Source: an uncultured Marinobacter sp.
Lineage (GTDB): Bacteria > Pseudomonadota > Gammaproteobacteria > Pseudomonadales > Oleiphilaceae
Direction: 5' to 3'
NCBI RefSeq assembly: GCF_947259545.1
Contig: NZ_CAMYMK010000003.1
Span: forward strand, 57,469-121,468
Length of the DNA stretch: 64,000 bases
A program made the position numbers and the translations under genes. The notes beneath the pieces were generated by a model, which was given only the letters and a program-made list of their open reading frames with translations, was not told the origin of the DNA and ran no database searches. Below are positions 3,759 to 63,598 of this stretch, piece by piece (position 1 is the stretch's first letter; each line of letters starts with the position of its first letter).

Positions 3759-5855
3759 TTATTTAGCGTCGAAACCCTTGCCTTCTTCAGCGCGCTTGGC
3801 CAGCAGCGCCGCCGGCTTCCAGAAGCCTGGCTGGGTGTGGCGGTCTTCGGTGAAGGCCTGCATGGCGCGAACCACGTTGGGCAGGCCAACCTCTTCCGCG
3901 TAATGCATGGGGCCGCCACGGAATACCGGGAAGCCGTAACCGGTCAGGTACACCATGTCGATGTCGGAGGCGCGCTGGGCGATGCCTTCGTCCAGAATCT
4001 GGGCGCCTTCGTTGACCAGGGCGTAGACACAGCGCTCAACGATTTCCTGGTTGCTGATCTTGCGGGGGGTGATGCCCAGTTCGGCACGCACGTCGTCCAC
4101 CACCTTGTCCACTTCTGGATCGTGCAGGGCGTTGCGGTTGCCTGGCTCGTAGCGGTAGAAACCAGCGCCGGTCTTCTGGCCGTAACGGCCCATTTCGCAC
4201 AGGCGGTCAGCGACGACCATCTTCACCATGTCCGGGTTTTCTTCATACTGGCGCTTGCGGATGGCCCAGCCGATGTCGCCGCCGGCCAGGTCGGCCATGC
4301 GCAGCGGGCCCATGGCAAAGCCGAACTTCTCGATGGCCTTGTCGATCTGCTGAACGCTGGCGCCTTCTTCCAGCATCAGCAGAGCTTCGCGCTGATACTG
4401 GTTGATCATGCGGTTGCCAATAAAACCGTCACACACGCCGGACACCACGGCGGTCTTTTTGATCGCCTTGGCCAGCTTCATGGCGGTGGCCAGTACGTCC
4501 TTGGCGGTCTTCTCGCCGCGCACCACTTCCAGCAGCTTCATGATGTTGGCGGGGCTGAAGAAGTGCAGGCCGATGACGTCTTCCGGGCGCTTGGTGAAGC
4601 TGGCGATCTTGTTCAGATCGAGGGTGGAGGTGTTGGAGGCCAGGATGGCGCCCTGTTTGCAGACTTCGTCCAGCTTCTCGAACACGGACTGCTTCACGCC
4701 CATTTCTTCAAATACCGCTTCGATCACCAGGTCGACGTCGCTCAGGTCGTCATAGGTGAGGGACGGGGTGAGCAGCGCCATCTTGGCCTTGGCGTCGTCC
4801 TCACTCATGCGGCCTTTCTTGACCCGGCCTTCGTAGACTTTCTGGATGGCTGCCACGCCGCGGTCCAGACCTTCCTGCTTCATCTCTACCAGTGTTACCG
4901 GGATGCCGGCGTTGAGGAAGTTGATGCTGATACCGGTACCCATGGTGCCACCGCCGATCACACCGACGGACTTGATGTCACGCACCGGAGTATCGGAGGG
5001 CACATCGGCAATCTTGCTGGTCAGGCGCTCGGAGAAAAACGCGTGGCGCAGGGCGCGGGATTCCGGGGTCTGCATCAGGTTCACAAAGGCTTCGCGTTCG
5101 ACCTCCATACCCTTGTCAAAAGGCATGGTCACAGCGGCCTTTACCGCGTCCACGCACTTCAGCGGGGCCGGGTAGTTCTTTGCCATGGCACCTACGGTGT
5201 TACGGGTGAACATGAAGAAGCCTTCCGGATTGGGGTGCTTGGCCTTCAGGTCCCGCACTTTCTTCAGTGGCAGGTTTTCATTGGCGACCTTGGTGGCGTA
5301 GGCAATGGCGGCATCCTGCAGCTCACCCTCCACCAGCTCATCAAACAGGACGCTGCCCTTGAACTGTTTGGCGGGCACGGCGCTGCCGGACACAATCATG
5401 TTCAGGGCGTGTTCGGCGCCGATCACCCGGGGCAGACGCTGGGTGCCGCCGGCGCCCGGCAGCAGGCCCAGTTTCACTTCCGGCAGGGCAATCTGGGCAT
5501 CGGGTTTGGCGATGCGGTAATGGCAACCCAGGGCGAGTTCCAGACCGCCACCCATGCAGGCCCCGCTGATGGCGGCAATGACCGGCTTGCGGCTGCTTTC
5601 CACATAGTTGATGACGGTGTTCAGGTTGGGTTCGGCGGTGGCTTTGGAGGTGCCGAACTCGCTGATGTCGGCGCCGCCGGAGAAAGCGCGGTCGGAGCCG
5701 ATCAGCACAACAGCCTTCACCGCGTCATCGGCTTCCGCCTGGCGGATGCCGTTCACAATGCCCTGGCGCAGGGCCAGGCCCAGGCCGTTGACGGGCGGGT
5801 TGTCGAGTCGGATAACGGCAATGGCGCCGTTGAGATCGTAATGGGCGGTACTCAT
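3759..5855 (-). CDS. Enoyl-CoA hydratase / 3-hydroxyacyl-CoA dehydrogenase multifunctional enzyme, PimF-like
   Basis: Crotonase N-terminus ([34 protein letters not shown]), GVIGGGTMG Rossmann motif, GLHFFSPA; start MSTAHYDL at 5855. Confidence 0.95.
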
Positions 5856-5919
5856 TTGGGCAGCTCCCTGATACTGGAATCGGGTTGATCGTTGGTATGA
5901 AGACGCGCGTTGAAATCTC

Positions 5920-5958
5920 CATACACTGGTGTATTGTTGTTCCATACACTAATGTATG
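5920..5958. promoter_or_regulatory. Two tandem palindromic operators, likely bound by the adjacent TetR regulator
   Basis: CATACACTGGTGTATT (5920-5935) and CATACACTAATGTATG (5943-5958) in the divergent pimF/tetR intergenic region. Confidence 0.7.
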
Positions 5959-6046
5959 TTTTTGGTGGGGTCAACGGTTTCAAATTTGTGGGCTCCGTTA
6001 ATGTAGAATGCACCCGACATCGCCAGCAGCAGGATCTGACTACCGA

Positions 6047-6667
6047 ATGACTGACACCCGACAGCCCCGACGCACCAGCCGCAAGACGCCGGAAAAAGCG
6101 CAACTGACCCGCGACGACTGGCTGGATGCCGCCGCTGGCGAAGTGGCCGCGGGCGGTTTCAGTCATTTGCGGGTGCTGACACTGTCGAAAAAACTGGGTG
6201 TTACCCGGGGCAGTTTCTATTGGCACTTCAAGGACCATGAGGATCTGGTGGTCAGCTTTCTCGACCGCTGGCGGGACCGGCGGCTTCACGAACTTCAGTA
6301 CTGGAAGCCGAAAGGCGGGGATGTGGAAACTGAACTGAAGCAGATTCTGGAACTTCTGCTCACCGATGCCTCCCGTAACATTCGCCGCCTGCAGGTAGAG
6401 CTGGCGGTGCGGGATTTTGCCCGCCGCAACGACTATGCCGCGGATGTGGTGACGGAGGTGGACGAAGCACGGATCAATCAGAACTGTGAACTGTATGAGC
6501 GTCTGAGCAGTGATCCCCAGCGAATCCGCGACCTGTCACTGCTGATGTACGTGGCCACCATAGGATCCCAGGTGGTGCTGACGGGCAAGAAGGGGGATGC
6601 CGAAACCATCCGCCGGGTGGAAGACCTGATGGCACGCCTGGCGCTGGGGCAGCGTGATGACGACTAG
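6047..6667 (+). CDS. TetR/AcrR family transcriptional regulator
   Basis: LTRDDWLDAA...LSKKLGVTRGSFYWHFKD helix-turn-helix. Confidence 0.93.
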   Translation: MTDTRQPRRTSRKTPEKAQLTRDDWLDAAAGEVAAGGFSHLRVLTLSKKLGVTRGSFYWHFKDHEDLVVSFLDRWRDRRLHELQYWKPKGGDVETELKQILELLLTDASRNIRRLQVELAVRDFARRNDYAADVVTEVDEARINQNCELYERLSSDPQRIRDLSLLMYVATIGSQVVLTGKKGDAETIRRVEDLMARLALGQRDDD

Positions 6668-7478
6668 ATGGCTGGCCCTGCTGATGCTTGGCGCCTGCAT
6701 TGGCTTTGTTCAGGCCGCCCCGGCAGCCGACAGTGCTTGCATGGACGGGGCGGAAACGGAGCTGGAGCGGCTTTACTGCCAGGTTGTCCGCGAAGGTGGA
6801 GGTGCCGGCTTGCCCTCCCCAGCGGATTTCAAGCGCAACGATCCGCAGATTCAGGCGTTGCTGTTGCGCCGCCCCGCCGGGCGTCTGGGGCTGGAGGTGC
6901 CAGAGGTCGGTGCTGCGGCAGCGCCAGAGCCACCACCTTCGCAGGCTGATCCCGAAACCGCCGGTTCAGAGCCTGAAGATGCATCGCAACCCCGGGGATA
7001 TTTGTCTGAGTGCCAACTTCAGGGCCAACGCATTACCTGCCCGCAACGCCGTTTCGATCTGGTGACAAACCAGCACAACAGCGAACTGACCGACGGTGTT
7101 CTGGCGCCGGACAACCGCCTCGGGCTTGGTCCGTTCAACGGCGACCGGAATGACGAGGAGGCAGTGCGGCGCTATCTGTCAGATGCCTACGATCGCTATA
7201 TCCCCAAAATGGTGGACATCGGCCTGGGCGCCAGCACCATGAGTTTCACCGCCTTCCATAACGCATTCCACACCATGGAAGACGGTGGTGTCGATTTTGC
7301 CCGGCGCATGGAGCAAACCTTTTCCCTGCTCAAACAGGACAAGAAAAACCTCGCGGTAGATACCCGTTATCACGATGAGCTGCCGGGTGATCTTTCCCTG
7401 TGCATGGTGATTAACCGCGACATCATTGTGTGCGATAACGTGGGCACCAACTGGGTGTTTGTCAGCCCGTCCCGCTAG
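6654..7478 (+). CDS. Hypothetical exported protein
   Basis: Signal-peptide-like N-terminus (WLALLMLGACIGFVQAAPA), Cys pairs, Pro/Ala/Glu linker; overlaps tetR stop. Confidence 0.75.
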   Translation: MMTTRWLALLMLGACIGFVQAAPAADSACMDGAETELERLYCQVVREGGGAGLPSPADFKRNDPQIQALLLRRPAGRLGLEVPEVGAAAAPEPPPSQADPETAGSEPEDASQPRGYLSECQLQGQRITCPQRRFDLVTNQHNSELTDGVLAPDNRLGLGPFNGDRNDEEAVRRYLSDAYDRYIPKMVDIGLGASTMSFTAFHNAFHTMEDGGVDFARRMEQTFSLLKQDKKNLAVDTRYHDELPGDLSLCMVINRDIIVCDNVGTNWVFVSPSR

Positions 7479-7482
7479 GGTT

Positions 7483-8355
7483 TCAGTCGGTTTGCAGGAA
7501 ATCGTTAAGGTAGCCTGCCACCGCGGCCGGCTGTTCCTCCTGCAGGAAGTGCCCCGCCTCCACCTGCTCCACCCGCAGGGACTCAAAACACGTCTCAATG
7601 TGATTGAGGTATTCCGGGATGATCACCTTGTCCTTGTTGCCGTAGACGTACATGGCTGGCATCGGCCAGCGATGCCCTACCGTGGTGGCCCAGCGTTTGG
7701 CGTCATCGCGAAAGGTGCGGTAGAAGTTGGAACTGGTGCCGGGGGTGCCCGGAATCCGGAAGGTGCGCAGGTATTCGTCGAACGCGTCCCGTGGAAAGGG
7801 TTCCCCGTTCCAGGTGCGCAGGAAATGCCCCAGCCAGGTTTCCTCGGCGCCGGGGATCATCGCCTCCGGCAGTCCCGGTGTTTGCATGAAGTGCTGGTAC
7901 CAGTAGGCGGCGCCACTGCCGGAACGGACCTTCTCGATGACTTCCTGATTGCCCTTCAGGTTGTTGATGATGGCAATGTTCATGATCACCATCCGCCGCA
8001 CCCGGTCGGGGATGGCCAGGGCCACTTCCTGGGCGACAATGCCACCCCAGTCATGGCCCACAAGTTGAAAGTCTCCTATGCCCAGGCTGTCCAGCAGGCT
8101 GATCACATCCTGCGCCATTTCCTGTTTGCGATAACGCTCCACTTCCGGGGACCGTTCACTGTCGCCCAACCCCCGCAGGTCCGGAGCAATGATCCGAAAG
8201 CCCGGTTTCAGGTGCGCGGCCACGTGCTCCCAGCAGTAGGAGCTTTCCGGCCAGCCGTGGATCATCACCAGTGGCTGGCCGTCCGGGTTGCCGCCCTCCC
8301 GCCAGGCGAATCGGCCACGGGGTGTCTGTTGCTGTTTCGCGTCGGACAGTTGCAT
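7483..8355 (-). CDS. Alpha/beta hydrolase, epoxide hydrolase / haloacetate dehalogenase-like
   Basis: HGWPE, APDLRGLGDS, GHDWGG (Asp nucleophile), GHFLQEEQP. Confidence 0.9.
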   Translation of the reverse strand: MQLSDAKQQQTPRGRFAWREGGNPDGQPLVMIHGWPESSYCWEHVAAHLKPGFRIIAPDLRGLGDSERSPEVERYRKQEMAQDVISLLDSLGIGDFQLVGHDWGGIVAQEVALAIPDRVRRMVIMNIAIINNLKGNQEVIEKVRSGSGAAYWYQHFMQTPGLPEAMIPGAEETWLGHFLRTWNGEPFPRDAFDEYLRTFRIPGTPGTSSNFYRTFRDDAKRWATTVGHRWPMPAMYVYGNKDKVIIPEYLNHIETCFESLRVEQVEAGHFLQEEQPAAVAGYLNDFLQTD

Positions 8356-52898: not shown

Positions 52899-55166
52899 TC
52901 AGATGCGGGAATCCGCCGGAATATCGGTAACCATGGTACCTTCGCGCAGGGCTTTTTCCAGAGAGGCCGCGGGAACGGGCCGGCTGATCAGGTAGCCTTG
53001 GGCCAGGTCGCAATGATGATCCTTGAGGAACGCCAGCTGCTCCATGGTCTCAACCCCTTCCGCCACAACACGGATACCGAGATTGTGGGCCAGATTGATC
53101 ACCGCCCGGGTGATCACTGCATCGTCGTGTCGCTCGGTGACCTCGGTAATGAACGAACGGTCAATCTTAAGCAGATCTACGGGGAAGTCCCGCAAATAGC
53201 CCAGTGATGAATAGCCAACCCCGAAGTCATCAATGGCAAGGTGCACACCAAGTTTGTGTAACCGGGACAACTGGTTGAGGTTGTGTTCGATGTTCTGGAT
53301 AAAAATTTCCTCGGTCAGCTCCACTTCCAATTGTCCCGGTGGCACATTGTGGGCTTCCAGTGCTTCCTGAATATGGTCCACCAGACCCTCATCATCCAGC
53401 TCACGCCCCGAGAGGTTGACGGCAATGCGCAGCTGTTCGAAAGCGGTGCCACGCCAGCGGGCAAGTTGCTCGCAGGCAGCCATCACAACCCAGCGCCCGA
53501 TCTCGGTGATGCGGCCACTTTCTTCCGCCAACGGAATAAAATCGATGGGTGGCAGTAATCCCCGTTGCGGGTGTTGCCATCGTATCAGCGCCTCCGCGCT
53601 ATGGATCTCGGCGCTTTCCAGGTCGACCTGCGGCTGGAAGTGAAGTACGAATTCGTTGTTGGCAAGGGCCTGGCTAAGGTCCTTGTCCAGCTCCAGGCGC
53701 ATGACTTCCCGCTCCTGCATGCCCTCGGTGTAGAACTGGTAGGTATTGCGTCCCTGGTCCTTGGCGCGATACAGGGCAATATCCGCGTTACGGAGCAGGG
53801 TGTCGGTATCCAGGCCGCTCTGCGGGTAGAGGGCAATGCCCATGGTGGCGGTGATGCCGTGGGCCTGGTTCTGCACCTCGAAAGGCTCTGCGAAACATTG
53901 CTTGATCTGACCCAACAGATAAATGACGTCGTCCAGACTGTCGACATGCTGCTGGCAGATCATGAACTCATCTCCGCCGGAGTACGCCACCAGGATCTTC
54001 TCGTTGCTCAGGCTGTTCAGGCGCTCTGAAACCTTGATCAGCAGCTCGTCCCCGAACTGATGGCCAAGGGTGTCGTTAAGTACCTGGAAGCGGTCGAGAT
54101 CCATCATCACCAGGGCCACCTGCCGCATCTGGCGGTCGGCGATACTGAGGGTATGGGTAAGGTCTTCCATGAAGAACCGGCGGTTCGCGAGACCAGTCAG
54201 GGCGTCAGTGGATTCCAGCCGGACCAGATCCTGCTGCACTGCCTTGCGCTGGTCTATTTCCAGTTCCAGCTCTTTGCGGGTCTTCAGCAGCGCGCGATTG
54301 CGTTTGAGTACGATCTGAACCAGCAGGGTGGTCAGGCTGATCATAATCCCCATGAACAGAATGGAGATAAACGTGACCCAGGGCCAGATGCTTTTCCGGT
54401 CGTTGACCCAGGTGGTCGACGGAGTAATGCTCAGCGACCAGTCCACTGTCGGCAGGTCGACCTCGACAGTGTGGGAGTAGTCAGTAGCGAATTCCCTGCC
54501 GGCGTTGAGCTCATAGGCAAGGGCGCCGCCTTCAAAAATACTGATATGGAAATCGTCCAGAACCCTGCTGGTCAGTAACTGGCGGGCCAGGGTTTCCATC
54601 AGGAAGACACCGGCAATGAACCCTTTGTTTTCATCACCAGAGTGGACCGGCACATAGATAACCAGGCCCGTGCCGCCCTGTCGAAGATCGACCACACCGG
54701 AAACATCGATGGTGCCGTTGGCTTGCGCGGCCTCCAGCGCTTTGCGGCGCTCCGGGGAAAATGCCACGTTGTAACCAATAACCTCTTCGTTGCCTGATAC
54801 GGGCTCCAGCCAGCGAATCACGAACTGAGGGTCAATCCACTCAAGGGCCTGGTAAACGCCGAAGTCGTCCAGGTAGTTTCTGGCGTCCTGGCTCCAAAGC
54901 TCTTCCGTCATGTCCGGGTTGGCTTCAAGGCGTTTTGCCATGCGGCGAATGGCCTGCACATGAGCCAGGAATTCCCGCTCCAGGTTAACGGCCACGGCCT
55001 GGGCCTCATTGGCCAGATTGTTCTCAAGCTGGTGCCGGTCCTGCCTGTCGATGCCGAATTTCAGAACGGAAGCGATTCCGAGAAAGAGGACAAGAATCAG
55101 TACTGGAAAAACAGGGTGCAGAAGTCCTTTGACGACTTTGTTTGTCTCTGATTCTCGTTTTTCCAC
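52899..55166 (-). CDS. CHASE-GGDEF-EAL membrane c-di-GMP enzyme
   Basis: TM-flanked periplasmic domain (IGYNVAFSPERRKAL), DALTGLANRR, SGGDEF, EALIRWQHP, IDDFGVGYSSL. Confidence 0.92.
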   Translation of the reverse strand: MEKRESETNKVVKGLLHPVFPVLILVLFLGIASVLKFGIDRQDRHQLENNLANEAQAVAVNLEREFLAHVQAIRRMAKRLEANPDMTEELWSQDARNYLDDFGVYQALEWIDPQFVIRWLEPVSGNEEVIGYNVAFSPERRKALEAAQANGTIDVSGVVDLRQGGTGLVIYVPVHSGDENKGFIAGVFLMETLARQLLTSRVLDDFHISIFEGGALAYELNAGREFATDYSHTVEVDLPTVDWSLSITPSTTWVNDRKSIWPWVTFISILFMGIMISLTTLLVQIVLKRNRALLKTRKELELEIDQRKAVQQDLVRLESTDALTGLANRRFFMEDLTHTLSIADRQMRQVALVMMDLDRFQVLNDTLGHQFGDELLIKVSERLNSLSNEKILVAYSGGDEFMICQQHVDSLDDVIYLLGQIKQCFAEPFEVQNQAHGITATMGIALYPQSGLDTDTLLRNADIALYRAKDQGRNTYQFYTEGMQEREVMRLELDKDLSQALANNEFVLHFQPQVDLESAEIHSAEALIRWQHPQRGLLPPIDFIPLAEESGRITEIGRWVVMAACEQLARWRGTAFEQLRIAVNLSGRELDDEGLVDHIQEALEAHNVPPGQLEVELTEEIFIQNIEHNLNQLSRLHKLGVHLAIDDFGVGYSSLGYLRDFPVDLLKIDRSFITEVTERHDDAVITRAVINLAHNLGIRVVAEGVETMEQLAFLKDHHCDLAQGYLISRPVPAASLEKALREGTMVTDIPADSRI

Positions 55167-55230: not shown

Positions 55231-56532
55231 TTACGGGCGGTCACCGGCCACTAATTGTTGTATGCGTCCCTGTAACGAGATGCCGAAAGCACCGTCGGGC
55301 AGGGGGCGTAAAATAACAGATTGTGTGTCGTCCGGACGCTGCGACAGATCCAGAACCCTGGGCGTGACCGGATTCTTGTCAGTATCCAGCAGTACCTCGA
55401 TTCGGGGTTTCAGTTTCTTGCCGGGATGAGTGGCGACAATCAGCGCGACTTCCCCCGACGACAGTTCTACCAAACTTCCCGGCGGATAAATACCGATCAT
55501 TCGAATAAAGGCCTCGACCATCTCCGTGTCGAATTGCTGCCCCCGGTTGCTGTACAGGATGCGCATGGCATCGGAGGTTGGCAGGCCATCGCGATAACAT
55601 CGGTCGCTGGTAATGGCATCGAATGCGTCGACGATGGAAACCAGCCGCGCAAAGCGACTGATCTGTGGTTCTTCCAGTTGATGGGGGTAGCCAAGCCCGT
55701 CAATGCGCTCATGGTGGTGAACGCTGACGTCACTGATGATGGTATCCACATCCGGGTCCTGCTTCAGCAGGTCATAGCCCAGGGTCGTGTGTTTCTGCAT
55801 AACACTGAATTCGTTGGGGCTGAGGGCACCTGGTTTGTTGAGTATTGATGCCGGTACCTTGAGTTTGCCGATGTCGTGGAGCAGGCCACACAGTCCTGCA
55901 ATCTCCAGATCCTCATCAGGCATGCCCAGAAAACGGGCAAAAGCAACGGTGAAGACGGCCACCCTCAGACAATGCTCGGCGGTGTAGGCGTTCCGGGACT
56001 TGATTCGGCTCATCCAGAACATGGCACTGGCGTTGGCCTTGATGCTGTCCACACAATGTCGAATGATGGGGCGGGCATGTTGAAAATGCAGGTTGTTGTT
56101 GCCCTGTTCAATATCACGGATTACCCGCTCGATAAACGTGCGGGTTTTGTGCCACGTTGCCTTGGCCCTGGGAATTTCTTCCAGCAGCGAACGGGTTTCT
56201 GCCATGGGCGCTGTCGTGCGTTTTCGCTGCCGCGCGAGCTTGTCGATGACAGGAGCCAGGCGCACCTCTTCATCTTCCACCATAACCCATTCACAGTAGT
56301 GCCTCAGAACCTGGGCCTGGCCTGGATCGGTAAGGATAAATCCCTGGAACAGAACGGGGACCTCCGTCCACGGTCGGTCCAGTTTCACGACCTTCATGCC
56401 GATTTCGAGCAGATCGACGGGCAGCTTGACGCGACGCAGGGAGGTAGCTGACCGCCCCGATGGCGCCGCCACCTTGTTGGCGATCGGTCGGGGTGTCGTC
56501 TGTGCCCTGTTGGTTTTGCGTCTGAACCACAT
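55231..56532 (-). CDS. HD-GYP c-di-GMP phosphodiesterase with DUF3391-like N-terminus
   Basis: LEIGMKVVKLDRPW, YTAEHC, LLHDIGK, HHERIDGLGYP, IVDAFDAITSDRCY. Confidence 0.92.
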   Translation of the reverse strand: MWFRRKTNRAQTTPRPIANKVAAPSGRSATSLRRVKLPVDLLEIGMKVVKLDRPWTEVPVLFQGFILTDPGQAQVLRHYCEWVMVEDEEVRLAPVIDKLARQRKRTTAPMAETRSLLEEIPRAKATWHKTRTFIERVIRDIEQGNNNLHFQHARPIIRHCVDSIKANASAMFWMSRIKSRNAYTAEHCLRVAVFTVAFARFLGMPDEDLEIAGLCGLLHDIGKLKVPASILNKPGALSPNEFSVMQKHTTLGYDLLKQDPDVDTIISDVSVHHHERIDGLGYPHQLEEPQISRFARLVSIVDAFDAITSDRCYRDGLPTSDAMRILYSNRGQQFDTEMVEAFIRMIGIYPPGSLVELSSGEVALIVATHPGKKLKPRIEVLLDTDKNPVTPRVLDLSQRPDDTQSVILRPLPDGAFGISLQGRIQQLVAGDRP

Positions 56533-56601: not shown

Positions 56602-57045
56602 TCACGACAGGGAGGCGCCGGTTACCGGTGGTACGCCAAGACGCGGAATTTCCTGTTTGGGGCAGCGATCCATCACCACAGTCAGGCCGGCGGCCTCCGC
56701 TTTCTTCGCACCTTCTTCATTAATCACGCCAACCTGCATCCAAACCACAGGGATGTTGAGCTTTATCGCGGCGTTGATCACCGGTCCGGTGCGTTCCGGT
56801 GCCAGAAACAGTTCCACCATGTCTACCGGTTCAGGCAAGGCGTCGAGATCCGCGTAAACCGTTTCCCCGAGGAGCTGCTGGCCAGCCAGCTTCGGGTTGA
56901 CCGGGATGACGCGGTAACCCCGGCCCTGCATAAAGGCCATCACCTCGTGACTGGGGCGGTGGGTTTTGTCGCTGGCGCCCACAAGGGCAATGGTGCGAAT
57001 ACTGGTTAAAATGGCGCGGATCGCTTCCGGTGTCTGCGTTGGCAT
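56602..57045 (-). CDS. CoA-binding protein (YccU-like)
   Basis: IALVGASDK, VIPVNP, VWMQVGV, VVMDRC. Confidence 0.92.
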   Translation of the reverse strand: MPTQTPEAIRAILTSIRTIALVGASDKTHRPSHEVMAFMQGRGYRVIPVNPKLAGQQLLGETVYADLDALPEPVDMVELFLAPERTGPVINAAIKLNIPVVWMQVGVINEEGAKKAEAAGLTVVMDRCPKQEIPRLGVPPVTGASLS

Positions 57046-57211
57046 GGTTGTATAAGCCCTTTTCGCGGTGTGAGTTGCCGACTGTACCCCGGCTTGCCGG
57101 TGTCTGGAGATGATACTATAGGTCTTTGATCGTCAAGGCTTGCATGTAATAGGATCGCTGTTCAAGGTGCTCACCGGGGTGAGCCGCCTCTAAACTGAAA
57201 AGGACCAGAGT

Positions 57212-57940
57212 ATGGCAGTCTTGACCATGCTGGGAGTGGGCCACTCCGAAGCGATTGACCACTGGAATAACAACGCCATGGTAGAGGCCGGTGACAGGCG
57301 GTTGCTGATTGACGCCGGCTACACCATCAAATTTGCATTACGGGACCGCGGCCTGACTCTGGCCGATGTGGACGCCATTTTTATCACCCACGCCCATGCG
57401 GATCACTGTTTTGGTCTGGAGCGGCTGGGGTACGAGTGCCGATTCCGTTATGGCTTCAAGCCTGTGCTGTATTTACCCCCCGGAGTTTACGAAGAATTGT
57501 GGGAACACACCCTCAAGGGAGTGATGGGGCAAGTGGGCGAAGGGCCGGCGGAGCTGACGGACTTCTTTGATGTGGTGCTGCTGGACGACCGGCCCTTCGA
57601 GTTTGAAGGCGTCCGCTTGCAGCCGTTCCAGAACCGGCATACGCCGGAAAAACCGTCCTACGGCCTGATGCTCAACGATCACCTGCTGTTCAGTGGTGAT
57701 ACCCGCCCGATCCCTGAACTGGTGGCGCAATTCAATCCGCAGACGATTCTGCATGACGCCACCCTGTCGGACTGGAACCCGGTCCATGCTTCGGTTCGCG
57801 AGCTTCGTGAAAACTATCCGGACACCCAGCGTGAGCGAATGTACCTGATGAGCTATGAAGACACGTTCGAGCAACATCGGGCGGAAGTGGAGCAGGAGTT
57901 TGCCGGGTTTGCCCGTCAGGGACAGGAGTTTGCCCTTTGA
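57212..57940 (+). CDS. MBL-fold metallo-phosphodiesterase resembling the Apyc1/RNase Z group
   Basis: MLGVG..NNNA..LLIDAG..ITHAHADHCFGLE..LW..SY..FSGDT..LHDA..VHAS..FARQGQE. Confidence 0.85.
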   Translation: MAVLTMLGVGHSEAIDHWNNNAMVEAGDRRLLIDAGYTIKFALRDRGLTLADVDAIFITHAHADHCFGLERLGYECRFRYGFKPVLYLPPGVYEELWEHTLKGVMGQVGEGPAELTDFFDVVLLDDRPFEFEGVRLQPFQNRHTPEKPSYGLMLNDHLLFSGDTRPIPELVAQFNPQTILHDATLSDWNPVHASVRELRENYPDTQRERMYLMSYEDTFEQHRAEVEQEFAGFARQGQEFAL

Positions 57941-59634
57941 CCGAGGAAACCGTGTTTGCCCGGGTGATCCATTCCGATCTCGAAGCCGGTCGTTTTCTGG
58001 TGCTGGTGACCGAGGATCAGAGACTGGCCTACAGCCACTGGCGGCCTTTCCAGCAGGCGGGCTATCCGGCGGTGACCGCGGGTCAGGAGGTCCGGGTTCG
58101 GCTTGGCCGTGATCGCCGGGACAGTAAGACCCTGGTGGTGCGCGAGGTGCTGGATAATGACGAGGCTCGAGAGGTAGCGGTGATCAGCCACGGGTTGACG
58201 CTGTCGCCGGATGAGCCACGTCATATGGCCGAGGCGGAGTTCCTGGCGGCCATTGATCCCGCAGATGGTGTGGTGGTGATCGCCAATGCGGTGATTGACG
58301 GCTCGGAACGGTCTGACCTGGCTTTTGCCGGATCCGTGGTGCTGATCAATTGCGAGGTATTGGGCGATTTCCGCTGGCTCGGGGCCCGATTCCGGGGCAG
58401 TTTCTGGTGCCTCAACTGCCGCTTCAACAATCATTTCAGCCTGAAATCCGCGCATCTGGATGGCAGCGTTGTGATGTTTGGCTGTGACTTCAGCGGCGCC
58501 GGTGGCATTTCGTTCCGTGGCATTCAGGCCTGCTCCGTGCTGATGGAATTCGGTACCCGTGGCAGCGAGGACATGCTCTGGCTCAACGAAATGACCCTGA
58601 GCGGATGCCTGGCGCTGAACGGCAGTTTCCAGGCGCCTGTGCAACTGATGGCGGTCCAGGACGAGGCACCGGTGAACGATTCGCCGTCTCTGGGCCAGGT
58701 CTATATTGGCCGCCAGAGTTATCACGCCGAACAGCTGAGCAGAAACGGTTTTGAAGGCGGTTTGTTTGTTGACGGGTATACGGTGTCTGGCCGTCTGGAG
58801 ATTCGCCGCAGTCATCTGAACCAGTTGCGGTTGGGAGAGCTGACAGCGGAATCCATCCTGGTGGATAACTGTGAACTGGCCGCTGACCTCTGGCTGGATC
58901 GGGTTACCGTGACGGACGAAGAAGTGGGCATCAGCATCCAGGATACCCTGGTGGGGCGTCACCTGAGGATGACCGGACATCACTTCCGTGGCCGCTTGTG
59001 TCTGAACGGTTCATCCGTGGGTCAGGCGTGGATGCTGGAGCTGGAAGCGCCTGAGGAAGGCACACCGAAGGTGGAGATGATGCGCTTCCACGCTGAGCAG
59101 GCGTGGTTTGATCCGGTGTCCCTGGTCTACGGTGCCAAACCGGCCCGACGCTCGACAACGCCGCCGCCTTTCGGTCTGTTGGCGCGGGCCATGATGCCCC
59201 GCCCCAGCGGCGATGACCGTCGTCATCTGGCGGAAGCCTACACCCGGTTCAAGAACTGGATGTCCACCACCGGGCATCTGCGGGAGGAGGACCACGCCTT
59301 TTTCCACATGCGGCATCACAAGGAAACCAGCAGGGTGCGCCGTTTCCTGCTTGGGGGAGTGTTTGGATGGGGCATCCGGTTTCGGAATATTCTGGCGGCG
59401 GCGCTGATGATCTCAATCCTGTTTGCGGCGGCGTTCATGGCGGTCGGAATCCGCACCGGAGAAGCGGTGATGCTCAGCCTGCAGAGTTTTATCAGCAGTT
59501 TCTACGGTCAGTGGAGTGAGCCCGAACCCTCCGCCACCGGACTCCTGTCGGTGCTGGTCACACTGGAATCCATGATCGGTGTGCTGTTTGTGACCGTATT
59601 AGTGGGTGCATACATTCGCAAGCTACTGAGATAA
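57937..59634 (+). CDS. CSD-like + pentapeptide-like solenoid + ion-channel-like membrane protein
   Basis: N-terminal GYPAVTAGQEVRV; repeats such as ARFRGSFWCLNCRFNNHFSL; C-terminal AEAYTRFKN..G..EED..F, FGWGIR, TM-LSLQSFISSFYG-TM(ESMIGV); TTGA overlap with upstream gene. Confidence 0.75.
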   Translation: MTEETVFARVIHSDLEAGRFLVLVTEDQRLAYSHWRPFQQAGYPAVTAGQEVRVRLGRDRRDSKTLVVREVLDNDEAREVAVISHGLTLSPDEPRHMAEAEFLAAIDPADGVVVIANAVIDGSERSDLAFAGSVVLINCEVLGDFRWLGARFRGSFWCLNCRFNNHFSLKSAHLDGSVVMFGCDFSGAGGISFRGIQACSVLMEFGTRGSEDMLWLNEMTLSGCLALNGSFQAPVQLMAVQDEAPVNDSPSLGQVYIGRQSYHAEQLSRNGFEGGLFVDGYTVSGRLEIRRSHLNQLRLGELTAESILVDNCELAADLWLDRVTVTDEEVGISIQDTLVGRHLRMTGHHFRGRLCLNGSSVGQAWMLELEAPEEGTPKVEMMRFHAEQAWFDPVSLVYGAKPARRSTTPPPFGLLARAMMPRPSGDDRRHLAEAYTRFKNWMSTTGHLREEDHAFFHMRHHKETSRVRRFLLGGVFGWGIRFRNILAAALMISILFAAAFMAVGIRTGEAVMLSLQSFISSFYGQWSEPEPSATGLLSVLVTLESMIGVLFVTVLVGAYIRKLLR

Positions 59635-59641
59635 CACTGTC

Positions 59642-60181
59642 ATGTGGTACCTGTGTGGACTGGGAAGTAATATCGAACCGGAACAGAACCTGGTGAAGGT
59701 TGTCACTCGACTACTGGAAAAGCACGGGTCCCTGTGGCTGTCGCCGATCATTCACACTCGTCCCCAGGGTATCGAGACTGACCGTCCGTTTCTCAATGCG
59801 CTGGTGGTGGTGTTCAGTTCACTGTCTCCGGAGCGACTCAAGGCCCATTTCAATCAGTTGGAGGAATCTCTCGGACGGGACCGCTCGGATCCCCTCTGCA
59901 GTCTTAAGGATCGACCGATTGATGTGGACATCCTGGAGTACAGTGAGAACGGTCGTTTCCTGGGCGAAGGGATAGATGAACCCTACTATCAACGGCTTTT
60001 TCATGGGCAGACTGAAAACTCAGTCCGGGCTTCCCTGACCGTGGCGGGCCATACCCTGGGCCAGGCGTCGGCCACCATCCACCGGGATCTGCGCACCGGT
60101 GATGAAATCGTTGTCCACCAGGGCCAGCAACTGCATGACCACGCTGTGAAAGCCTCCCTCGCGGGCCAGCAGGGTCTCTGA
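59642..60181 (+). CDS. folK: FolK/HPPK-like pyrophosphokinase
   Basis: LGSNIE, PFLNAL, LEESLGR, DRPIDVDIL. Confidence 0.85.
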   Translation: MWYLCGLGSNIEPEQNLVKVVTRLLEKHGSLWLSPIIHTRPQGIETDRPFLNALVVVFSSLSPERLKAHFNQLEESLGRDRSDPLCSLKDRPIDVDILEYSENGRFLGEGIDEPYYQRLFHGQTENSVRASLTVAGHTLGQASATIHRDLRTGDEIVVHQGQQLHDHAVKASLAGQQGL

Positions 60182-60784
60182 CAATACCTGCTGTCTTTGG
60201 CTGTCGGTATGGCGCGGCAGGAATCCGATGGGGCCGGGCATAATGGCATTGACCCGCACATCGGGCGCCAGCAGCGCGGCATAGCTCAGGGTCAGGTTGG
60301 CCAGGGCTGCCTTGGACGCACAATAGGCTCCGTAAAGCGGGTTGGGGCGTTCCGTGAAGATGTCGGTAATGTTGACGATCAGTGACGGACGCCCGTACAC
60401 CCGCGCCGCTGCCTCCAGGGCAGGGCCGAGGCCGTGCATCAGCTGCATGGGAGCGGTGCTGTTGATCTGAAACAGGCGGGCAGCCTGGTCCGGGCGTTGC
60501 CGTGGATCCTGGGCGTCGGTTTCGAATGTGGAGGCGTTGTTGACCAACAGGCTGACGCTGCTGGTGTCGCGAATAATGTCGTCGATCCGGGCCTGCACCG
60601 CGTCCGGATCGGCCAGATCGACCTGCAGTGCCGTCGCACCCCGACCGATGAGGTGATCGACCTCATCGGTGTGAGTCCGGTACAGGGCGAACAAACGGTA
60701 GCCCCGCTCAATCAGAGCCAGACTCGATTCATAACCGAGCCGCCGACCGGCACCGGTGATCACGGCCACTGGAGCAGTCGACAT
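60020..60784 (-). CDS. Pteridine reductase / FolM-like SDR
   Basis: TGAGRRLG, LVNNASTF, NITDIF, YCASKAAL, VRVNAIMPG, IPVDGGRRL. Confidence 0.85.
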   Translation of the reverse strand: MSTAPVAVITGAGRRLGYESSLALIERGYRLFALYRTHTDEVDHLIGRGATALQVDLADPDAVQARIDDIIRDTSSVSLLVNNASTFETDAQDPRQRPDQAARLFQINSTAPMQLMHGLGPALEAAARVYGRPSLIVNITDIFTERPNPLYGAYCASKAALANLTLSYAALLAPDVRVNAIMPGPIGFLPRHTDSQRQQVLSETLLAREGGFHSVVMQLLALVDNDFITGAQIPVDGGRRLAQGMARHGQGSPD

Positions 60785-60788
60785 GGAA

Positions 60789-61358
60789 TCAGTCCCGGTG
60801 GCTGAGCAGCTGCAGGAATTCGGTTCGGGTCGCCTGGGATTTGCGGAACTGGCCCAGCATCACCGAGGTTTTCATGCGGGAGTTCTGTTTCTCCACACCC
60901 CGCATCATCATGCACATGTGCTGGGCTTCGATCACCACGGCCACACCCTTGGCGCCGGTGACTGATTCAATGGCTTCGGCGATTTCCCGGGTCAGGTTTT
61001 CCTGGATCTGCAGCCTTCGCGCGTACATGTCGACAATACGGGCAAACTTGGACAGCCCGAGAACCTTGCCCTGCGGCATGTAGGCAATATGGCACTTGCC
61101 GATAAACGGCAGCATATGGTGTTCGCACATGCTGTATAGCTCGATGTCCTGAATCATCACCATCTCGTCCATGGAGGACTCAAAGACAGCGTTATTGACC
61201 AGTTCACCCAGGTCCTGCTGATAGCCGTTTGTCAGGAACTGCATGGCCTTGGCCGCACGCATTGGCGTGTCCATCAGGCCCTCGCGGGAGGTGTCTTCCC
61301 CCAGACCATTAATGATGTCGCGGTAATGGCCGGCCAAATCTTCCAGGGAGTTGCTCAT
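60789..61358 (-). CDS. folE: GTP cyclohydrolase I
   Basis: [48 protein letters not shown]. Confidence 0.96.
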
Positions 61359-61556
61359 AATCGGTTCCGGTATTCAGTGTCTGATTCAGGGCGAAGCTTA
61401 AGGGAAATCGCCGGTTATCTCCATGGTTTACGTGGACAGGTCCACAAAAGACCACACGTGGCCGGAATGACTCCGGCAAATCCGGTGCACAGCTATGGCG
61501 GCACCCACTGGTTTGTTCTACAGTTCCAGTCTGCAAACTCTTTCCAGGAACAGGGC

Positions 61557-62471
61557 ATGGAACAGGTCATCGCCGGACACACAATGGCTTCCCGGAGTAC
61601 TCAACAGGTTGGAACGCTGGATTGGTGGCAACAAGGCGGCAAATGGTTCAGTTATGAAGGTCATGCCATTTTCAGCCGGATGGCAGGGCAGGGAGAGCCA
61701 CTGGTTCTGCTGCACGGATTTCCAACCGCCAGCTGGGACTGGAACCGCCTGTGGCCCATGCTGACCCAGCAATACAACGTGCTGGTACTGGATATGCTGG
61801 GCTTCGGTTTTTCCGACAAGCCGGTGGTATACGACTACAGCATTGAAGACCAGGCTGACCTGTTCGAAGGCTGGATTGCCGGCCTGGGCCTGAAGACCGT
61901 CCATCTGTTTGCCCATGACTACGGCTGCAGTGTGACCCAGGAGTTGCTGGCCAGGGACCAGGAAGGCACCTTGCCGTTTCGTATCGCCAGTGTCTGTTTC
62001 CTGAACGGAGCCCTGTTTCCAGAGGTGCACAACCCGCTGCTGATCCAGAAGCTGCTGTGCAGTCCCCTGGGAGGGCTGATCAGTCGTGGTCTGAATCGCC
62101 GGACCTTTGAGCGGAATTTCCGCCGATTGTTGGGGCCTGCCAATCCCCCGGATCGCGAGGATTTGGACAATTTCTGGCAATTACTCACTTACAACAATGG
62201 CCGCGGTATCCTTCATCGCCTGATTCATTTCATGGAAGAGCGGCGCTGTCACCGTAATCGATGGGTGGGTGCCTTGCAGAATGCCACGCAACCCATGCGA
62301 CTGGTGTCCGGTGTGGCCGACCCGGTGTCCGGAGCCTCCATGGCCAGGCGCTACCGGGAACTGGTTCCCAACGCCGATGTCGTCAGTTTGCGGAATGTGG
62401 GTCACTACCCGCATTTTGAAAGTCCGTGGGACGTTTTTTCTGCTTATCGGGAATTCCGCAAACAGTTGTAA
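61557..62471 (+). CDS. Alpha/beta hydrolase, MEST/epoxide hydrolase-like
   Basis: LHGFPTASWDW, DMLGFGFSDKP, AHDYG, GHYPHFE; start uncertain (61557 or 61584). Confidence 0.88.
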   Translation: MEQVIAGHTMASRSTQQVGTLDWWQQGGKWFSYEGHAIFSRMAGQGEPLVLLHGFPTASWDWNRLWPMLTQQYNVLVLDMLGFGFSDKPVVYDYSIEDQADLFEGWIAGLGLKTVHLFAHDYGCSVTQELLARDQEGTLPFRIASVCFLNGALFPEVHNPLLIQKLLCSPLGGLISRGLNRRTFERNFRRLLGPANPPDREDLDNFWQLLTYNNGRGILHRLIHFMEERRCHRNRWVGALQNATQPMRLVSGVADPVSGASMARRYRELVPNADVVSLRNVGHYPHFESPWDVFSAYREFRKQL

Positions 62472-62485
62472 TCCCGGGCCGCGGC

Positions 62486-63598
62486 TCAGGTGTCGGCAAT
62501 CAAATCTGTGCCGCCATCATCCATTGGGCTTGACGTGTCTGCAGTTCTCGGTGCGCTGACCACCTGGTTCCGGCCCCGGGATTTGGCCTGATACAGTGAT
62601 TGGTCAGCGCGATTCAGCCACACCGACCAGGTTTCGCCCTGGACAACTTCCGCCGCACTGGCACTGGCTGTGACCCGGATATCATCCAGAAAAGGGCGGG
62701 CACTGATGCAGATCAGCAGTTCCTGTGCAAGAGTTTCGGCATCCCGTTGACGGGTTTCCGGCAGCACCAGCATAAATTCCTCTCCGCCTATACGAAAAAG
62801 CTGGTCGCTTTCTCGCAGCCGTCGGCGAATTCTCATTGTGAGCTCCGTTAATACCTTGTCGCCAGCAAGGTGCCCCCACTGGTCGTTGATGGTCTTGAAG
62901 TAATCGAGATCCAGCAGGATCAGGCTGGATACCCGCTCATAGCGTTCACGCATCTGGATCTGACTGTTGAGGATATCGGCCAGTTGCGATCGGTTGAGAC
63001 AGCCGGTCAAGGGGTCCGTGGTCGCCAGACGTGTTAGTTCGTCTTGAAGCCGACCGACGAGCCAGGCAAAAACCATCGCAAAGACGCAGGTCAGGCCGAG
63101 GGAAAAGGTGATGCGCCAGAAGTCCGCTTCCGGGAACTGGAGAAACGACACCATTGCCATCACGGTGACAAAAAGGATGTTGCTGATGGTGGCTTCCCGT
63201 AGCGGAAGCAGGAAAAACACAGCGGTGGCGGCGGGGTACGCCCAGTACAGGCCGGCATAACCGTTAATGCTCGTGGAGTAGGCGGCACAGATCACCGCCA
63301 GCAACGGAAACAATCGCCCTTTGAGGAAATAGGTGCCACGGAACCTGAGAAACGCGATCACCAGCAGGGCATTAGTGCGGAAAAAGATCAGCAACGTCGA
63401 TAGCAGATAATTACCGTGACTCCACTGCACCAGGATCAATGGGGCGACGGCAATAAACGACCAGAAGTAAAGGTGGTAGACAATCTGGCGTTTGAAGCCC
63501 AGAACCGCAAGTGTAGGATTGGTGGCAACCTTATCTGTTGAGAGCGATGGACTCACAGCGCACTCCTGCTGTTCCTGTACTTTTGAACCCGCTTCCAT
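62486..63598 (-). CDS. Membrane-bound diguanylate cyclase
   Basis: About six TM segments; TDPLTGCLNR, DLDYFKTINDQWGH, RIGGEEF, ADQSLYQAKSRGRN. Confidence 0.92.
   Translation of the reverse strand: MEAGSKVQEQQECAVSPSLSTDKVATNPTLAVLGFKRQIVYHLYFWSFIAVAPLILVQWSHGNYLLSTLLIFFRTNALLVIAFLRFRGTYFLKGRLFPLLAVICAAYSTSINGYAGLYWAYPAATAVFFLLPLREATISNILFVTVMAMVSFLQFPEADFWRITFSLGLTCVFAMVFAWLVGRLQDELTRLATTDPLTGCLNRSQLADILNSQIQMRERYERVSSLILLDLDYFKTINDQWGHLAGDKVLTELTMRIRRRLRESDQLFRIGGEEFMLVLPETRQRDAETLAQELLICISARPFLDDIRVTASASAAEVVQGETWSVWLNRADQSLYQAKSRGRNQVVSAPRTADTSSPMDDGGTDLIADT

Follow-up and report, generated by a model that had tools for sequence, protein, structure and literature searches.

The window analysed here, 64,000 nucleotides of contig NZ_CAMYMK010000003.1 from an uncultured Marinobacter sp., carries three co-oriented plus-strand genes at 57212-60181, as read from its listing of open reading frames (ORFs) over 52-64 kb. 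The first encodes a phosphodiesterase of the metallo-beta-lactamase (MBL) fold, the second an unannotated membrane protein referred to here as MID, and the third a divergent HPPK paralog referred to as FolK'. Judged from sequence comparisons and structure models, these genes and a convergent pteridine reductase gene look like an undescribed module in which a ligand-handling enzyme is coupled, in a pterin context, to a predicted ligand-gated membrane effector. The features of the locus are as follows.

57212-57940, plus strand: MBL, 242 aa, Apyc1-family MBL-fold phosphodiesterase by homology
57937-59634, plus strand: MID, 565 aa, unannotated membrane protein with a predicted cold-shock domain (CSD)/OB domain, beta-solenoid, helical linker and P-loop pore
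59642-60181, plus strand: FolK', 179 aa, divergent HPPK paralog
60020-60784, minus strand: FolM/PruA-type pteridine reductase, a short-chain dehydrogenase/reductase (SDR) of 254 aa, convergent with FolK'
60789-61358, minus strand: FolE, GTP cyclohydrolase I of type IA (PF01227, 250 bits; TIGR00063 above cut-off)
56602-57045, minus strand: CoA_binding_2 gene, divergent upstream neighbour of MBL
57046-57211, no strand: intergenic region between the divergent CoA_binding_2 gene and MBL, presumed promoter of the operon

The ORF coordinates bear out what a first-pass annotation of this DNA had read from the letters, namely three co-oriented genes with a 4-bp overlap and a 7-bp gap. The MBL stop codon TGA (57938-57940) and the MID start codon TTG (57937) share the tetranucleotide TTGA, and an AGGAG lies 10 nt upstream of the MID start. 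The MID stop codon TAA (59632-59634) is followed, after the 7-nt gap, by the ATG of FolK'. Upstream, an AAGGA is found about 9 nt 5' of the MBL ATG (57212), and a scan of 57046-57211 for the sigma-70 consensus gave no site. At the other end of the operon, the 3' ends of FolK' and the convergent reductase gene overlap by 162 nt (60020-60181).

Protein families encoded by the locus

MBL scores 131.5 bits against the Pfam profile PF23023 (Anti-Pycsar_Apyc1; cut-off 50), its residues 4-223 covering profile positions 5-229 of 250. The closest relatives in the PDB are the Paenibacillus Apyc1 structures 7U2R (E 2e-40, 39% identity) and 7U2S (7e-40, 37%), with the Apyc1 of phage Bsp38 (7T28) third. 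The metal motif H60-A-H62-A-D64-H65 and the later H, D, H and H ligands align with 7U2R and 7U2S with few gaps, and the protein is similar in length to Apyc1. Homology thus places MBL in the Apyc1 family of Zn-dependent cyclic-nucleotide phosphodiesterases, and the Apyc1 motif layout that the first-pass annotation had described is confirmed at the family level by the hidden Markov model and PDB searches. When MBL was compared with Apyc1, RNase Z and phosphodiesterase profiles it fell in the Apyc1 family and not with tRNase Z. An identity as RNase Z/RNase BN was rejected because TIGR02651 reached 52.4 bits against a cut-off of 292.95, and over the N-terminal 100 residues only. Identities as a class II cAMP phosphodiesterase (tested with the model 'cyclic nucleotide-degrading phosphodiesterase') and as PhnP were rejected with scores far under the respective cut-offs. 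PF23023 is represented by a single copy in the query genome, its cut-off was reached in none of 14 control genomes, and no MBL-HPPK fusion was seen among 77 close MBL homologs.

A tree of 62 MBL sequences, which held only three validated Apyc1 sequences, resolved three clades that join at a node with 100/100 support. All MID-linked MBLs fall in one clade (98/92), the MBLs linked to FolK' and FolM in other families form the second, and the solved Apyc1 proteins form the third, so that the query belongs to a sister clade of validated Apyc1. The MBLs of Marinobacteraceae that lack MID are nested within the MID-linked clade, which indicates loss of MID. Apyc1 cleaves cAMP, cGMP, cCMP and cUMP (PMC9117128). 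For Apyc1 homologs, over 80% of which sit in chromosomal, non-mobile DNA, a role in regulating housekeeping cyclic nucleotides (cNMPs) has been proposed, and the tested bacterial homologs with an intact loop cleaved all four cNMPs (PMC11724313). MBL shares the fold and the HxHxDH and other metal ligands of Apyc1, and like most of these homologs it is chromosomal and off mobile elements. It differs in its sister-clade placement and in being only 30-32% identical to phage Apyc1, and its coupling to a channel-like protein and to pterin genes was not met in the passages of PMC9117128 and PMC11724313 that were consulted.

MID had no family match in Pfam or NCBIfam, and both named homologs that were seen are annotated 'hypothetical protein'. 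An AlphaFold2 model built with 25 homologs has a pLDDT of 88.2 and a pTM of 0.84, and suggests four regions, the last of which contains two transmembrane helices (TM1 and TM2).

Residues 1-75 (57937-58161, plus strand): five-stranded, cold-shock-domain-like OB barrel
Residues ~110-395 (58264-59121, plus strand): right-handed, pentapeptide-repeat-like beta-solenoid, from the secondary structure of the model
Residues 425-475: linker of three helices in the model
Residues 482-565 (59380-59631, plus strand): TM1 at 482-503, pore helix at 507-518, loop at 519-535 (SFYGQW...) and TM2 at 536-564

In a Foldseek search of the PDB with full-length MID, the first match was HalA (9nyi_A, the Hailong effector with oligodeoxyadenylate; E 8.6e-4, probability 1.00), with low global TM scores of 0.21 and 0.32. 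The last 166 residues, modelled apart (pLDDT 76), again found HalA first, followed mostly by P-loop cation pores (KirBac3.1, Kir, MthK, NaK, KvAP and NMDA receptors); each of these pore matches had a weak E-value (0.3-3), and TM scores on pore-only chains were 0.55-0.61. The order TM1, pore helix, filter loop and TM2 is seen in the AlphaFold2 models, and conservation within the family is highest in the pore, with the pattern GGxFGWG(I/V)RxxN ... LSxQSFISSFFGxW ... VTxES..G..F.TV..GAYIRKLLR. At the position of the K+ filter MID has SF(F/Y)GxW instead of TVGYG. MID itself did not match Pfam Ion_trans_2; two remote relatives of its C-terminal domain reach this profile, and one of them, P0106, passes (24.2 bits, cut-off 22.5).

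The N-terminal barrel was matched by Foldseek to CspA/CspB and IF1 with target-normalised TM scores of 0.78-0.80 and an rmsd of about 2 A, and the profile match of MID to the Thermotoga Csp was marginal (E 0.089). Within this domain R19 and W35 are invariant and F20 and H34 nearly so, and these residues correspond to those of the RNP motifs. The solenoid scored 17 bits against Pentapeptide_3, under the cut-off, whereas the homolog P0046 scored 31.7 bits; weak Foldseek matches of the solenoid were to AlbG and MfpA. In a sequence search against solved structures, MID showed no similarity to HalA and found only a marginal cold-shock protein, and neither Pfam nor the model revealed a recognisable cNMP-binding domain. 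Taken from the models, the description that fits MID best is that of a P-loop channel resembling HalA and extended by an OB domain. Its predicted fold is that of a tetrameric P-loop cation channel, modelled here as monomers, with a large cytoplasmic 'crown' formed by the CSD and the beta-solenoid, and a function as a signal-gated channel is plausible. The layout of OB domain, solenoid and channel that had been proposed for the second gene is thereby supported by AlphaFold2 and Foldseek.

A profile search of 1.8 billion representatives recovered about 45 full-length MID clusters at 50% identity. The C-terminal module also recurs in numerous further pentapeptide-repeat proteins, 340-1640 aa long; among the homologs P0095-P0115, helical and P-loop pore segments of the MID type end many far larger pentapeptide-repeat proteins (700-1640 aa). 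Such solenoid-capped, channel-like proteins form a broad class that is apparently undescribed.

FolK' matches PF01288 (57.8 bits, cut-off 25.7) over profile positions 3-93 of 116 only and TIGR01498 with 56.8 bits (cut-off 54.1), which backs the earlier FolK-like label for the third gene, though at partial profile coverage. Alignment with solved HPPKs and with orthologs indicates that GSN, TxPxG, FLNA (pterin site), GRDR and DRPxDxDI (Arg loop and Mg ligands) are kept. Relative to canonical HPPK (FolK), the N-terminal 100 residues of FolK' align and the pterin-site T, N and aromatic residues, the Mg-site DxD and the Arg-rich loop are retained, whereas the last quarter of the domain is replaced. 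The canonical PHP...R.F segment gives way to EPY(Y/F), and a C-terminal motif, LGxx(P/A)ATIxRD..G..VVV.Q, is kept in every lineage. The retained motifs together with the conserved new motif mark FolK' as a distinct, conserved HPPK subfamily, by its sequence of the pyrophosphokinase type. The idea that the protein ends in a read-through or pseudogene tail was discarded, since the C-terminal motif is kept across families. FolK' was also rejected as the folate-pathway HPPK of the cell, because two full-length HPPKs are encoded elsewhere in the query genome, in the contexts pcnB-folK-panB and folB-folK. It is an extra paralog beside canonical FolK in 12 other genomes as well, so that FolK' stands beside one or two full-length FolKs, and in a class-wide sample FolK'-type genes were present in 11 of 400 genomes, each with a canonical FolK elsewhere. 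In the complete genome of Marinobacter salarius R9SW1 (CP007152; locus L006) the FolK' ortholog at ~7706-8245 is frameshifted after about 30 codons, either as a pseudogene or through a sequencing error, and MBL, MID, FolM and FolE are intact.

The best match of the SDR is NF005066 (dihydromonapterin reductase), at 176.5 bits and under the cut-off of 249. Its motifs TGAGRRLG and YCASK conform to TGX3RXG and YX3K, a signature given as pteridine-reductase-specific in a 2026 review (PMC13259868) and present in 10 of 10 linked SDRs from other loci. FolE is the only copy in the query genome, and for this reason it was rejected as a copy dedicated to the module; it adjoins the module only in Marinobacteraceae and Billgrantia. 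The reductase, more than FolE, is the regular fourth member. The query genome encodes no FolX and only one FolB-family gene, and a tetrahydromonapterin pathway via FolX was dropped on the former ground.

The convergent 3' overlap of FolK' and FolM, about 70-160 nt, recurs in every lineage examined (the window, L016, L057, L058, L060, L078, L082, L093, L096 and L097). This conserved antisense overlap could couple expression of the two genes, and the tail of Marinobacter FolK' beyond VVV.Q may exist only because of it. A Methyltransf_28 (MidA/NDUFAF7-like) gene adjoins the FolM-like reductase at L058:5159-6397, L060:9993-11156 and L096:4418-5587. It neighbours FolK'-FolM in at least two gammaproteobacterial families, confirmed with Pfam in L058 and L060 and called by sequence likeness only in L096.

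Recurrence of the gene set in other genomes

The adjacency of the module genes is conserved far beyond chance, being kept across about 30 independent loci with protein identities down to 28-45%. The trio co-occurs in other genomes, which removes the possibility, raised in the first-pass annotation, that these three genes stand together nowhere else. The pterin link, a secondary suggestion at that stage, is strongly reinforced, as FolK' and the SDR of pteridine-reductase type are the most constant partners. Module genes recur in various combinations in Marinobacteraceae, Halomonadaceae and Ectothiorhodospiraceae, on a contig with dsr genes and on low-GC marine metagenome contigs.

MBL lies directly 5' of MID in 28 of the 31 MID loci with sufficient upstream sequence, and the 4-nt overlap was present in the loci whose ORF coordinates were examined (L008, L009, L011, L012, L081 and L087); high-GC ORF calls are noisy in some of the compared loci. 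Eleven close genome loci with MID, from Marinobacter species, Billgrantia kenyensis and a metagenome-assembled genome of Ectothiorhodospiraceae, all have MBL immediately upstream, and most have FolK' and the convergent reductase downstream. FolK' is directly 3' of MID in Marinobacter, Billgrantia, L012, L016 and the low-GC loci L078-L082, L084, L088 and L089. Wherever downstream sequence suffices, a FolK' linked to MID has a convergent TGX3RXG reductase, the exceptions being L081, in which no FolM match was found, and L012. In L012 the genes run SDR-MBL-MID-FolK' in one orientation, the reductase being 5' of MBL, with 4-nt overlaps at both the MBL/MID and the MID/FolK' junctions. This operon occupies 4221-8189 of the compared region of a 1-Mb contig (ENA ERZ21830300) amid dsr sulfur-oxidation genes, flanked upstream by sulfite-reductase-type (NIR_SIR) and DsrE genes and downstream by DsrE-, DsrH- and DsrC-family genes. 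Its position there is good support for the cassette moving as one unit.

The more distant MID homologs, on metagenome contigs that carry no taxonomy, have 28-35% identity and a GC content of 35-45%. L082 contains MBL-MID-FolK'-FolM and L081 MBL-MID-FolK'; MID-FolK'-FolM occurs without MBL in L078-L080, L084, L088 and L089, and MBL-MID stands alone, with FolK' and FolM not nearby, in L008, L009, L011, L083, L085-L087 and L090. Conversely, MBL-FolK'-reductase is found without MID in five other Marinobacteraceae genomes (MBL about 72% identical) and in three genomes of two other gammaproteobacterial families (48% identity). Four Marinobacter genomes have a FolK' ortholog and no MBL, and the two contexts examined show FolM and FolE at the same site; two other genomes have kept only MBL-MID-FolE at the Marinobacter site. 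In one family the arrangement is tsaD-plsY-folB-FolK', convergent with FolM and a Methyltransf_28 gene, and here folB fills the slot that MBL takes in L060. Gammaproteobacterial Apyc1-like genes of 28-37% identity had none of the module's neighbours.

Genomic setting and known systems

In Marinobacteraceae the module lies at one fixed chromosomal site with conserved flanks of cyclic di-GMP (c-di-GMP), CoA-binding and hydrolase genes, and every variant of the module in this family has the CoA-binding gene as its divergent neighbour. Further neighbours in the window are genes for an HD-GYP protein, a CHASE-GGDEF-EAL protein, an alpha/beta hydrolase and a GGDEF protein. The c-di-GMP genes, at 52899-55166, 55231-56532 and 62486-63598 (all minus strand), encode CHASE-GGDEF-EAL, DUF3391-HD-GYP and GGDEF proteins, and c-di-GMP enzymes border the module in all Marinobacteraceae loci. 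The alpha/beta-hydrolase ORF as listed (61326-62471, plus strand) runs over the folE start with some 75-100 extra codons at its N-terminal end; since homologs begin to align only at residue ~78-101, the true start is probably downstream.

The first-pass annotation had read the operon as a possible anti-phage or abortive-infection system, a reading that found no support. PADLOC (PADLOC-DB v2.0.0, 2023, which may not cover systems described later, such as Hailong in 2025) returned no match for the three proteins, and no relatives of MBL or of MID were found in 2.9 million viral contigs. One decayed copy excepted, no PADLOC-type defence genes were present among the neighbours checked. The setting is likewise one of signalling, metabolic or housekeeping genes: besides the fixed site in Marinobacteraceae, the MID-less forms of other families lie beside dut, coaBC and rpmB or beside tsaD-plsY-folB, and the low-GC versions stand among ordinary genes of metabolism. 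No nucleotidyltransferase (NTase), and with it no HalB-type partner, was seen in any locus examined, and the module has no linked cyclase gene or further sensor gene. MBL homologs in GenBank phages are limited to Bacillus and Staphylococcus phages (30-32% identity). A phage origin of the module was rejected on the lack of viral-contig relatives and on the fact that GenBank phages have only these distant Apyc1 proteins. MBL was also rejected as a phage anti-Pycsar protein in the strict sense, as its chromosomal site is common to Marinobacteraceae and it has no close relative on viral contigs.

The decayed copy is found in L013-L015 (GCA_964535565.1 and metagenomes), where a gene at 6001-7314 (P0045) encodes a 437-aa protein consisting of an N-terminally deleted MBL and the first 230 residues of MID. 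Three independent contigs end shortly after the fusion, hinting at a repeat or insertion sequence beyond, and the fusion gene lies beside a split hipA, a helix-turn-helix gene and RloB/AAA_21 genes. This copy looks like one decaying in a mobile or defence-like region. The fusion was not accepted as Rosetta-stone evidence because it lacks its N-terminus, breaks off at the contig-ending repeat and looks decayed.

By modelled fold, the known system nearest to MID is Hailong. HalA forms a homotetrameric ion channel gated by DNA, with a crown on the cytoplasmic side, and is toxic when alone (PMC13434031, reviewing Tan et al. 2025). It is the best structural match to both full-length MID and the MID pore domain. 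Both proteins, as modelled for MID, have P-loop-type pores with a large cytoplasmic part, and both are encoded beside an enzyme that controls, or in the case of MBL would control, a small nucleic-acid-like ligand. The likeness has limits, however. HalB makes the inhibitory ligand of HalA, whereas the partner of MID is a phosphodiesterase rather than an NTase; MID adds the N-terminal CSD and the long beta-solenoid, and has no sequence similarity to HalA; and the context of the module is not defence-like. Coupling of MBL, as a putative 'eraser', to a potentially dangerous MID channel would parallel the HalB/HalA pair.

Pterin signalling that runs from reductases of the FolM type to the enzymes of c-di-GMP is an established principle (PMC4488946, PMC11194511, PMC13259868). 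In the PruA-PruR-DcpA system of Agrobacterium, a FolM-type reductase acts through a pterin and a periplasmic binder on a GGDEF-EAL enzyme. The module shares with this system a TGX3RXG reductase near signalling genes, and c-di-GMP enzymes recur beside module genes, a link by adjacency that fits a signalling role. PruR (SUOX-like) was not among the genes annotated in 51.8-63.6 kb, where no search aimed at it was made. The module differs in its channel-like output and in its added HPPK-like and Apyc1-like genes. At L059:6707-8801 an MBL ortholog shares an operon with an EAL gene that it overlaps, and at ~6250-8740 of L092 and L094 a GGDEF-EAL gene replaces FolM as the convergent partner of FolK'. 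Such adjacency may reflect a link from pterin to c-di-GMP like that of PruA-DcpA, or it may be coincidence.

The early steps of methanopterin synthesis in archaea use the cyclohydrolase MptA, the cyclic phosphodiesterase MptB (an HD enzyme), the HPPK analogue MptE and a dihydromethanopterin reductase. The module would bring the same four kinds of activity together, by analogy only; the protein families are unrelated, and the module has neither an aldolase nor a methanopterin-specific gene.

A proposed pterin-linked circuit and its alternatives

What, then, does the module do? In our judgement the best reading, at about even odds, is that the chromosome encodes here a small-molecule circuit linked to pterins and ending at the membrane, rather than a phage defence. 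This reading draws on the family and fold assignments and on the linkage of the four genes in many lineages. The two pterin-family enzymes would define the chemistry of the module. FolE would supply the pterin skeleton as dihydroneopterin triphosphate, FolK' would pyrophosphorylate a pterin, and FolM would set the redox state of a phosphorylated (dihydro/tetrahydro)pterin-type ligand. The Apyc1-type phosphodiesterase would remove the ligand, which might be a pterin cyclic phosphate or triphosphate, or a coupled cNMP. MID would bind the ligand on its cytoplasmic CSD/solenoid crown and gate the cation pore in response, and translational coupling of MBL and MID would keep the 'eraser' in step with a channel that may be harmful if left open. 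Since ions are what P-loop pores and HalA conduct, an ion-channel output is preferred over export of the pterin. A more specific version of this circuit, in which a phosphorylated pterin serves as a cytoplasmic second messenger with FolK' (and FolM) as writer, the phosphodiesterase as eraser and MID as reader, is one that we hold tentatively and regard as unlikely.

Several points weigh against the pterin-linked circuit. The assignment of MID as a channel leans on AlphaFold2 monomers and on weak E-values for the pore, and the filter is non-canonical. By homology the substrates of MBL should be 3',5'-cNMPs, not a pterin. The pterin genes are not obligatory in cis for MBL-MID, and the adjacency of the sole FolE to the module may be purely positional. 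In addition, the closest fold to MID, HalA, is a defence effector, and MID is accessory (7 of 151 family genomes), rare and patchy in the manner of accessory or defence genes.

One alternative is that MBL and MID form an ordinary cNMP pair, in which the phosphodiesterase tunes a cNMP-sensitive channel and the pterin genes are positional or co-regulated through the GTP pool. Membership of MBL in the Apyc1 family, with all metal ligands aligned to Paenibacillus Apyc1, argues for it, as do the mostly chromosomal location and proposed housekeeping role of Apyc1 homologs (PMC11724313), the class III nucleotide cyclase encoded in the query genome and the MBL-MID pairs that occur without FolK' and FolM. 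MID, however, has no recognisable domain for binding cNMPs, no cyclase gene is linked to the module, and positional chance fails to explain why MBL-FolK'-FolM and MID-FolK'-FolM occur at separate sites and in separate families. We consider the cNMP pair improbable on balance.

A second alternative is a metabolic pterin branch, in which MBL dephosphorylates a FolE-derived pterin phosphate, FolK' and FolM process the product, and MID, rather than being a gated ion channel, serves to export the pterin or to hold the enzymes at the membrane. It would account for MBL taking the slot of folB in related folB-FolK'-FolM arrangements. The phosphatase of monapterin/neopterin synthesis and the pterin efflux system are unknown, and pterins are excreted by bacteria (PMC13259868). 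Nevertheless, tetrameric P-loop pores pass ions rather than 250-Da heterocycles, and HalA is an ion channel (PMC13434031); the query genome lacks FolX; and a large sensor of CSD and solenoid would be superfluous in a simple exporter. This branch seems to us rather doubtful.

The least probable alternative is an anti-phage abortive-infection or 'guard' system, in which a HalA-like channel is held shut by a constitutive ligand and becomes lethal when infection perturbs that ligand; the patchy distribution of MID and its HalA-like fold, the part of Apyc1-type enzymes in cNMP conflict between phage and host (PMC9117128) and the decayed copy beside hipA and RloB/AAA_21 keep it alive at low probability, against the null PADLOC and viral-contig searches, the fixed site, the core housekeeping neighbours of the MID-less forms, the lack of a linked cyclase, NTase or other sensor, and constant partners that are pterin enzymes.

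Chromosomal Apyc1 homologs and the HPPK, FolM and P-loop channel families are already known. Our search of the literature and databases found no named system or paper on the module, the MID family or the FolK' subfamily, and nothing on an MBL in pterin clusters; the database names seen were all generic, in agreement with the earlier remark that no named system is known to have this trio. The cellular role of the common chromosomal Apyc1 homologs is open (PMC11724313), and the locus gives one clade of them a concrete, conserved context. Pterin signalling is an emerging field with unknown membrane steps and uncharacterised FolM-like clusters, and the module offers candidates for a membrane protein that responds to pterins or handles them, as well as for the role of a widespread extra HPPK paralog. 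The predicted HalA-type architecture of MID, a P-loop pore under a cytoplasmic crown, would lie outside defence, and bears on the kinship between immune effectors and physiological channels. If a phosphorylated pterin does act on MID, then MID would be the first pterin-gated ion channel and a HalA-like channel recruited for physiology rather than defence, and pterin/folate status would be tied to membrane potential or ion balance in marine, halophilic Gammaproteobacteria.

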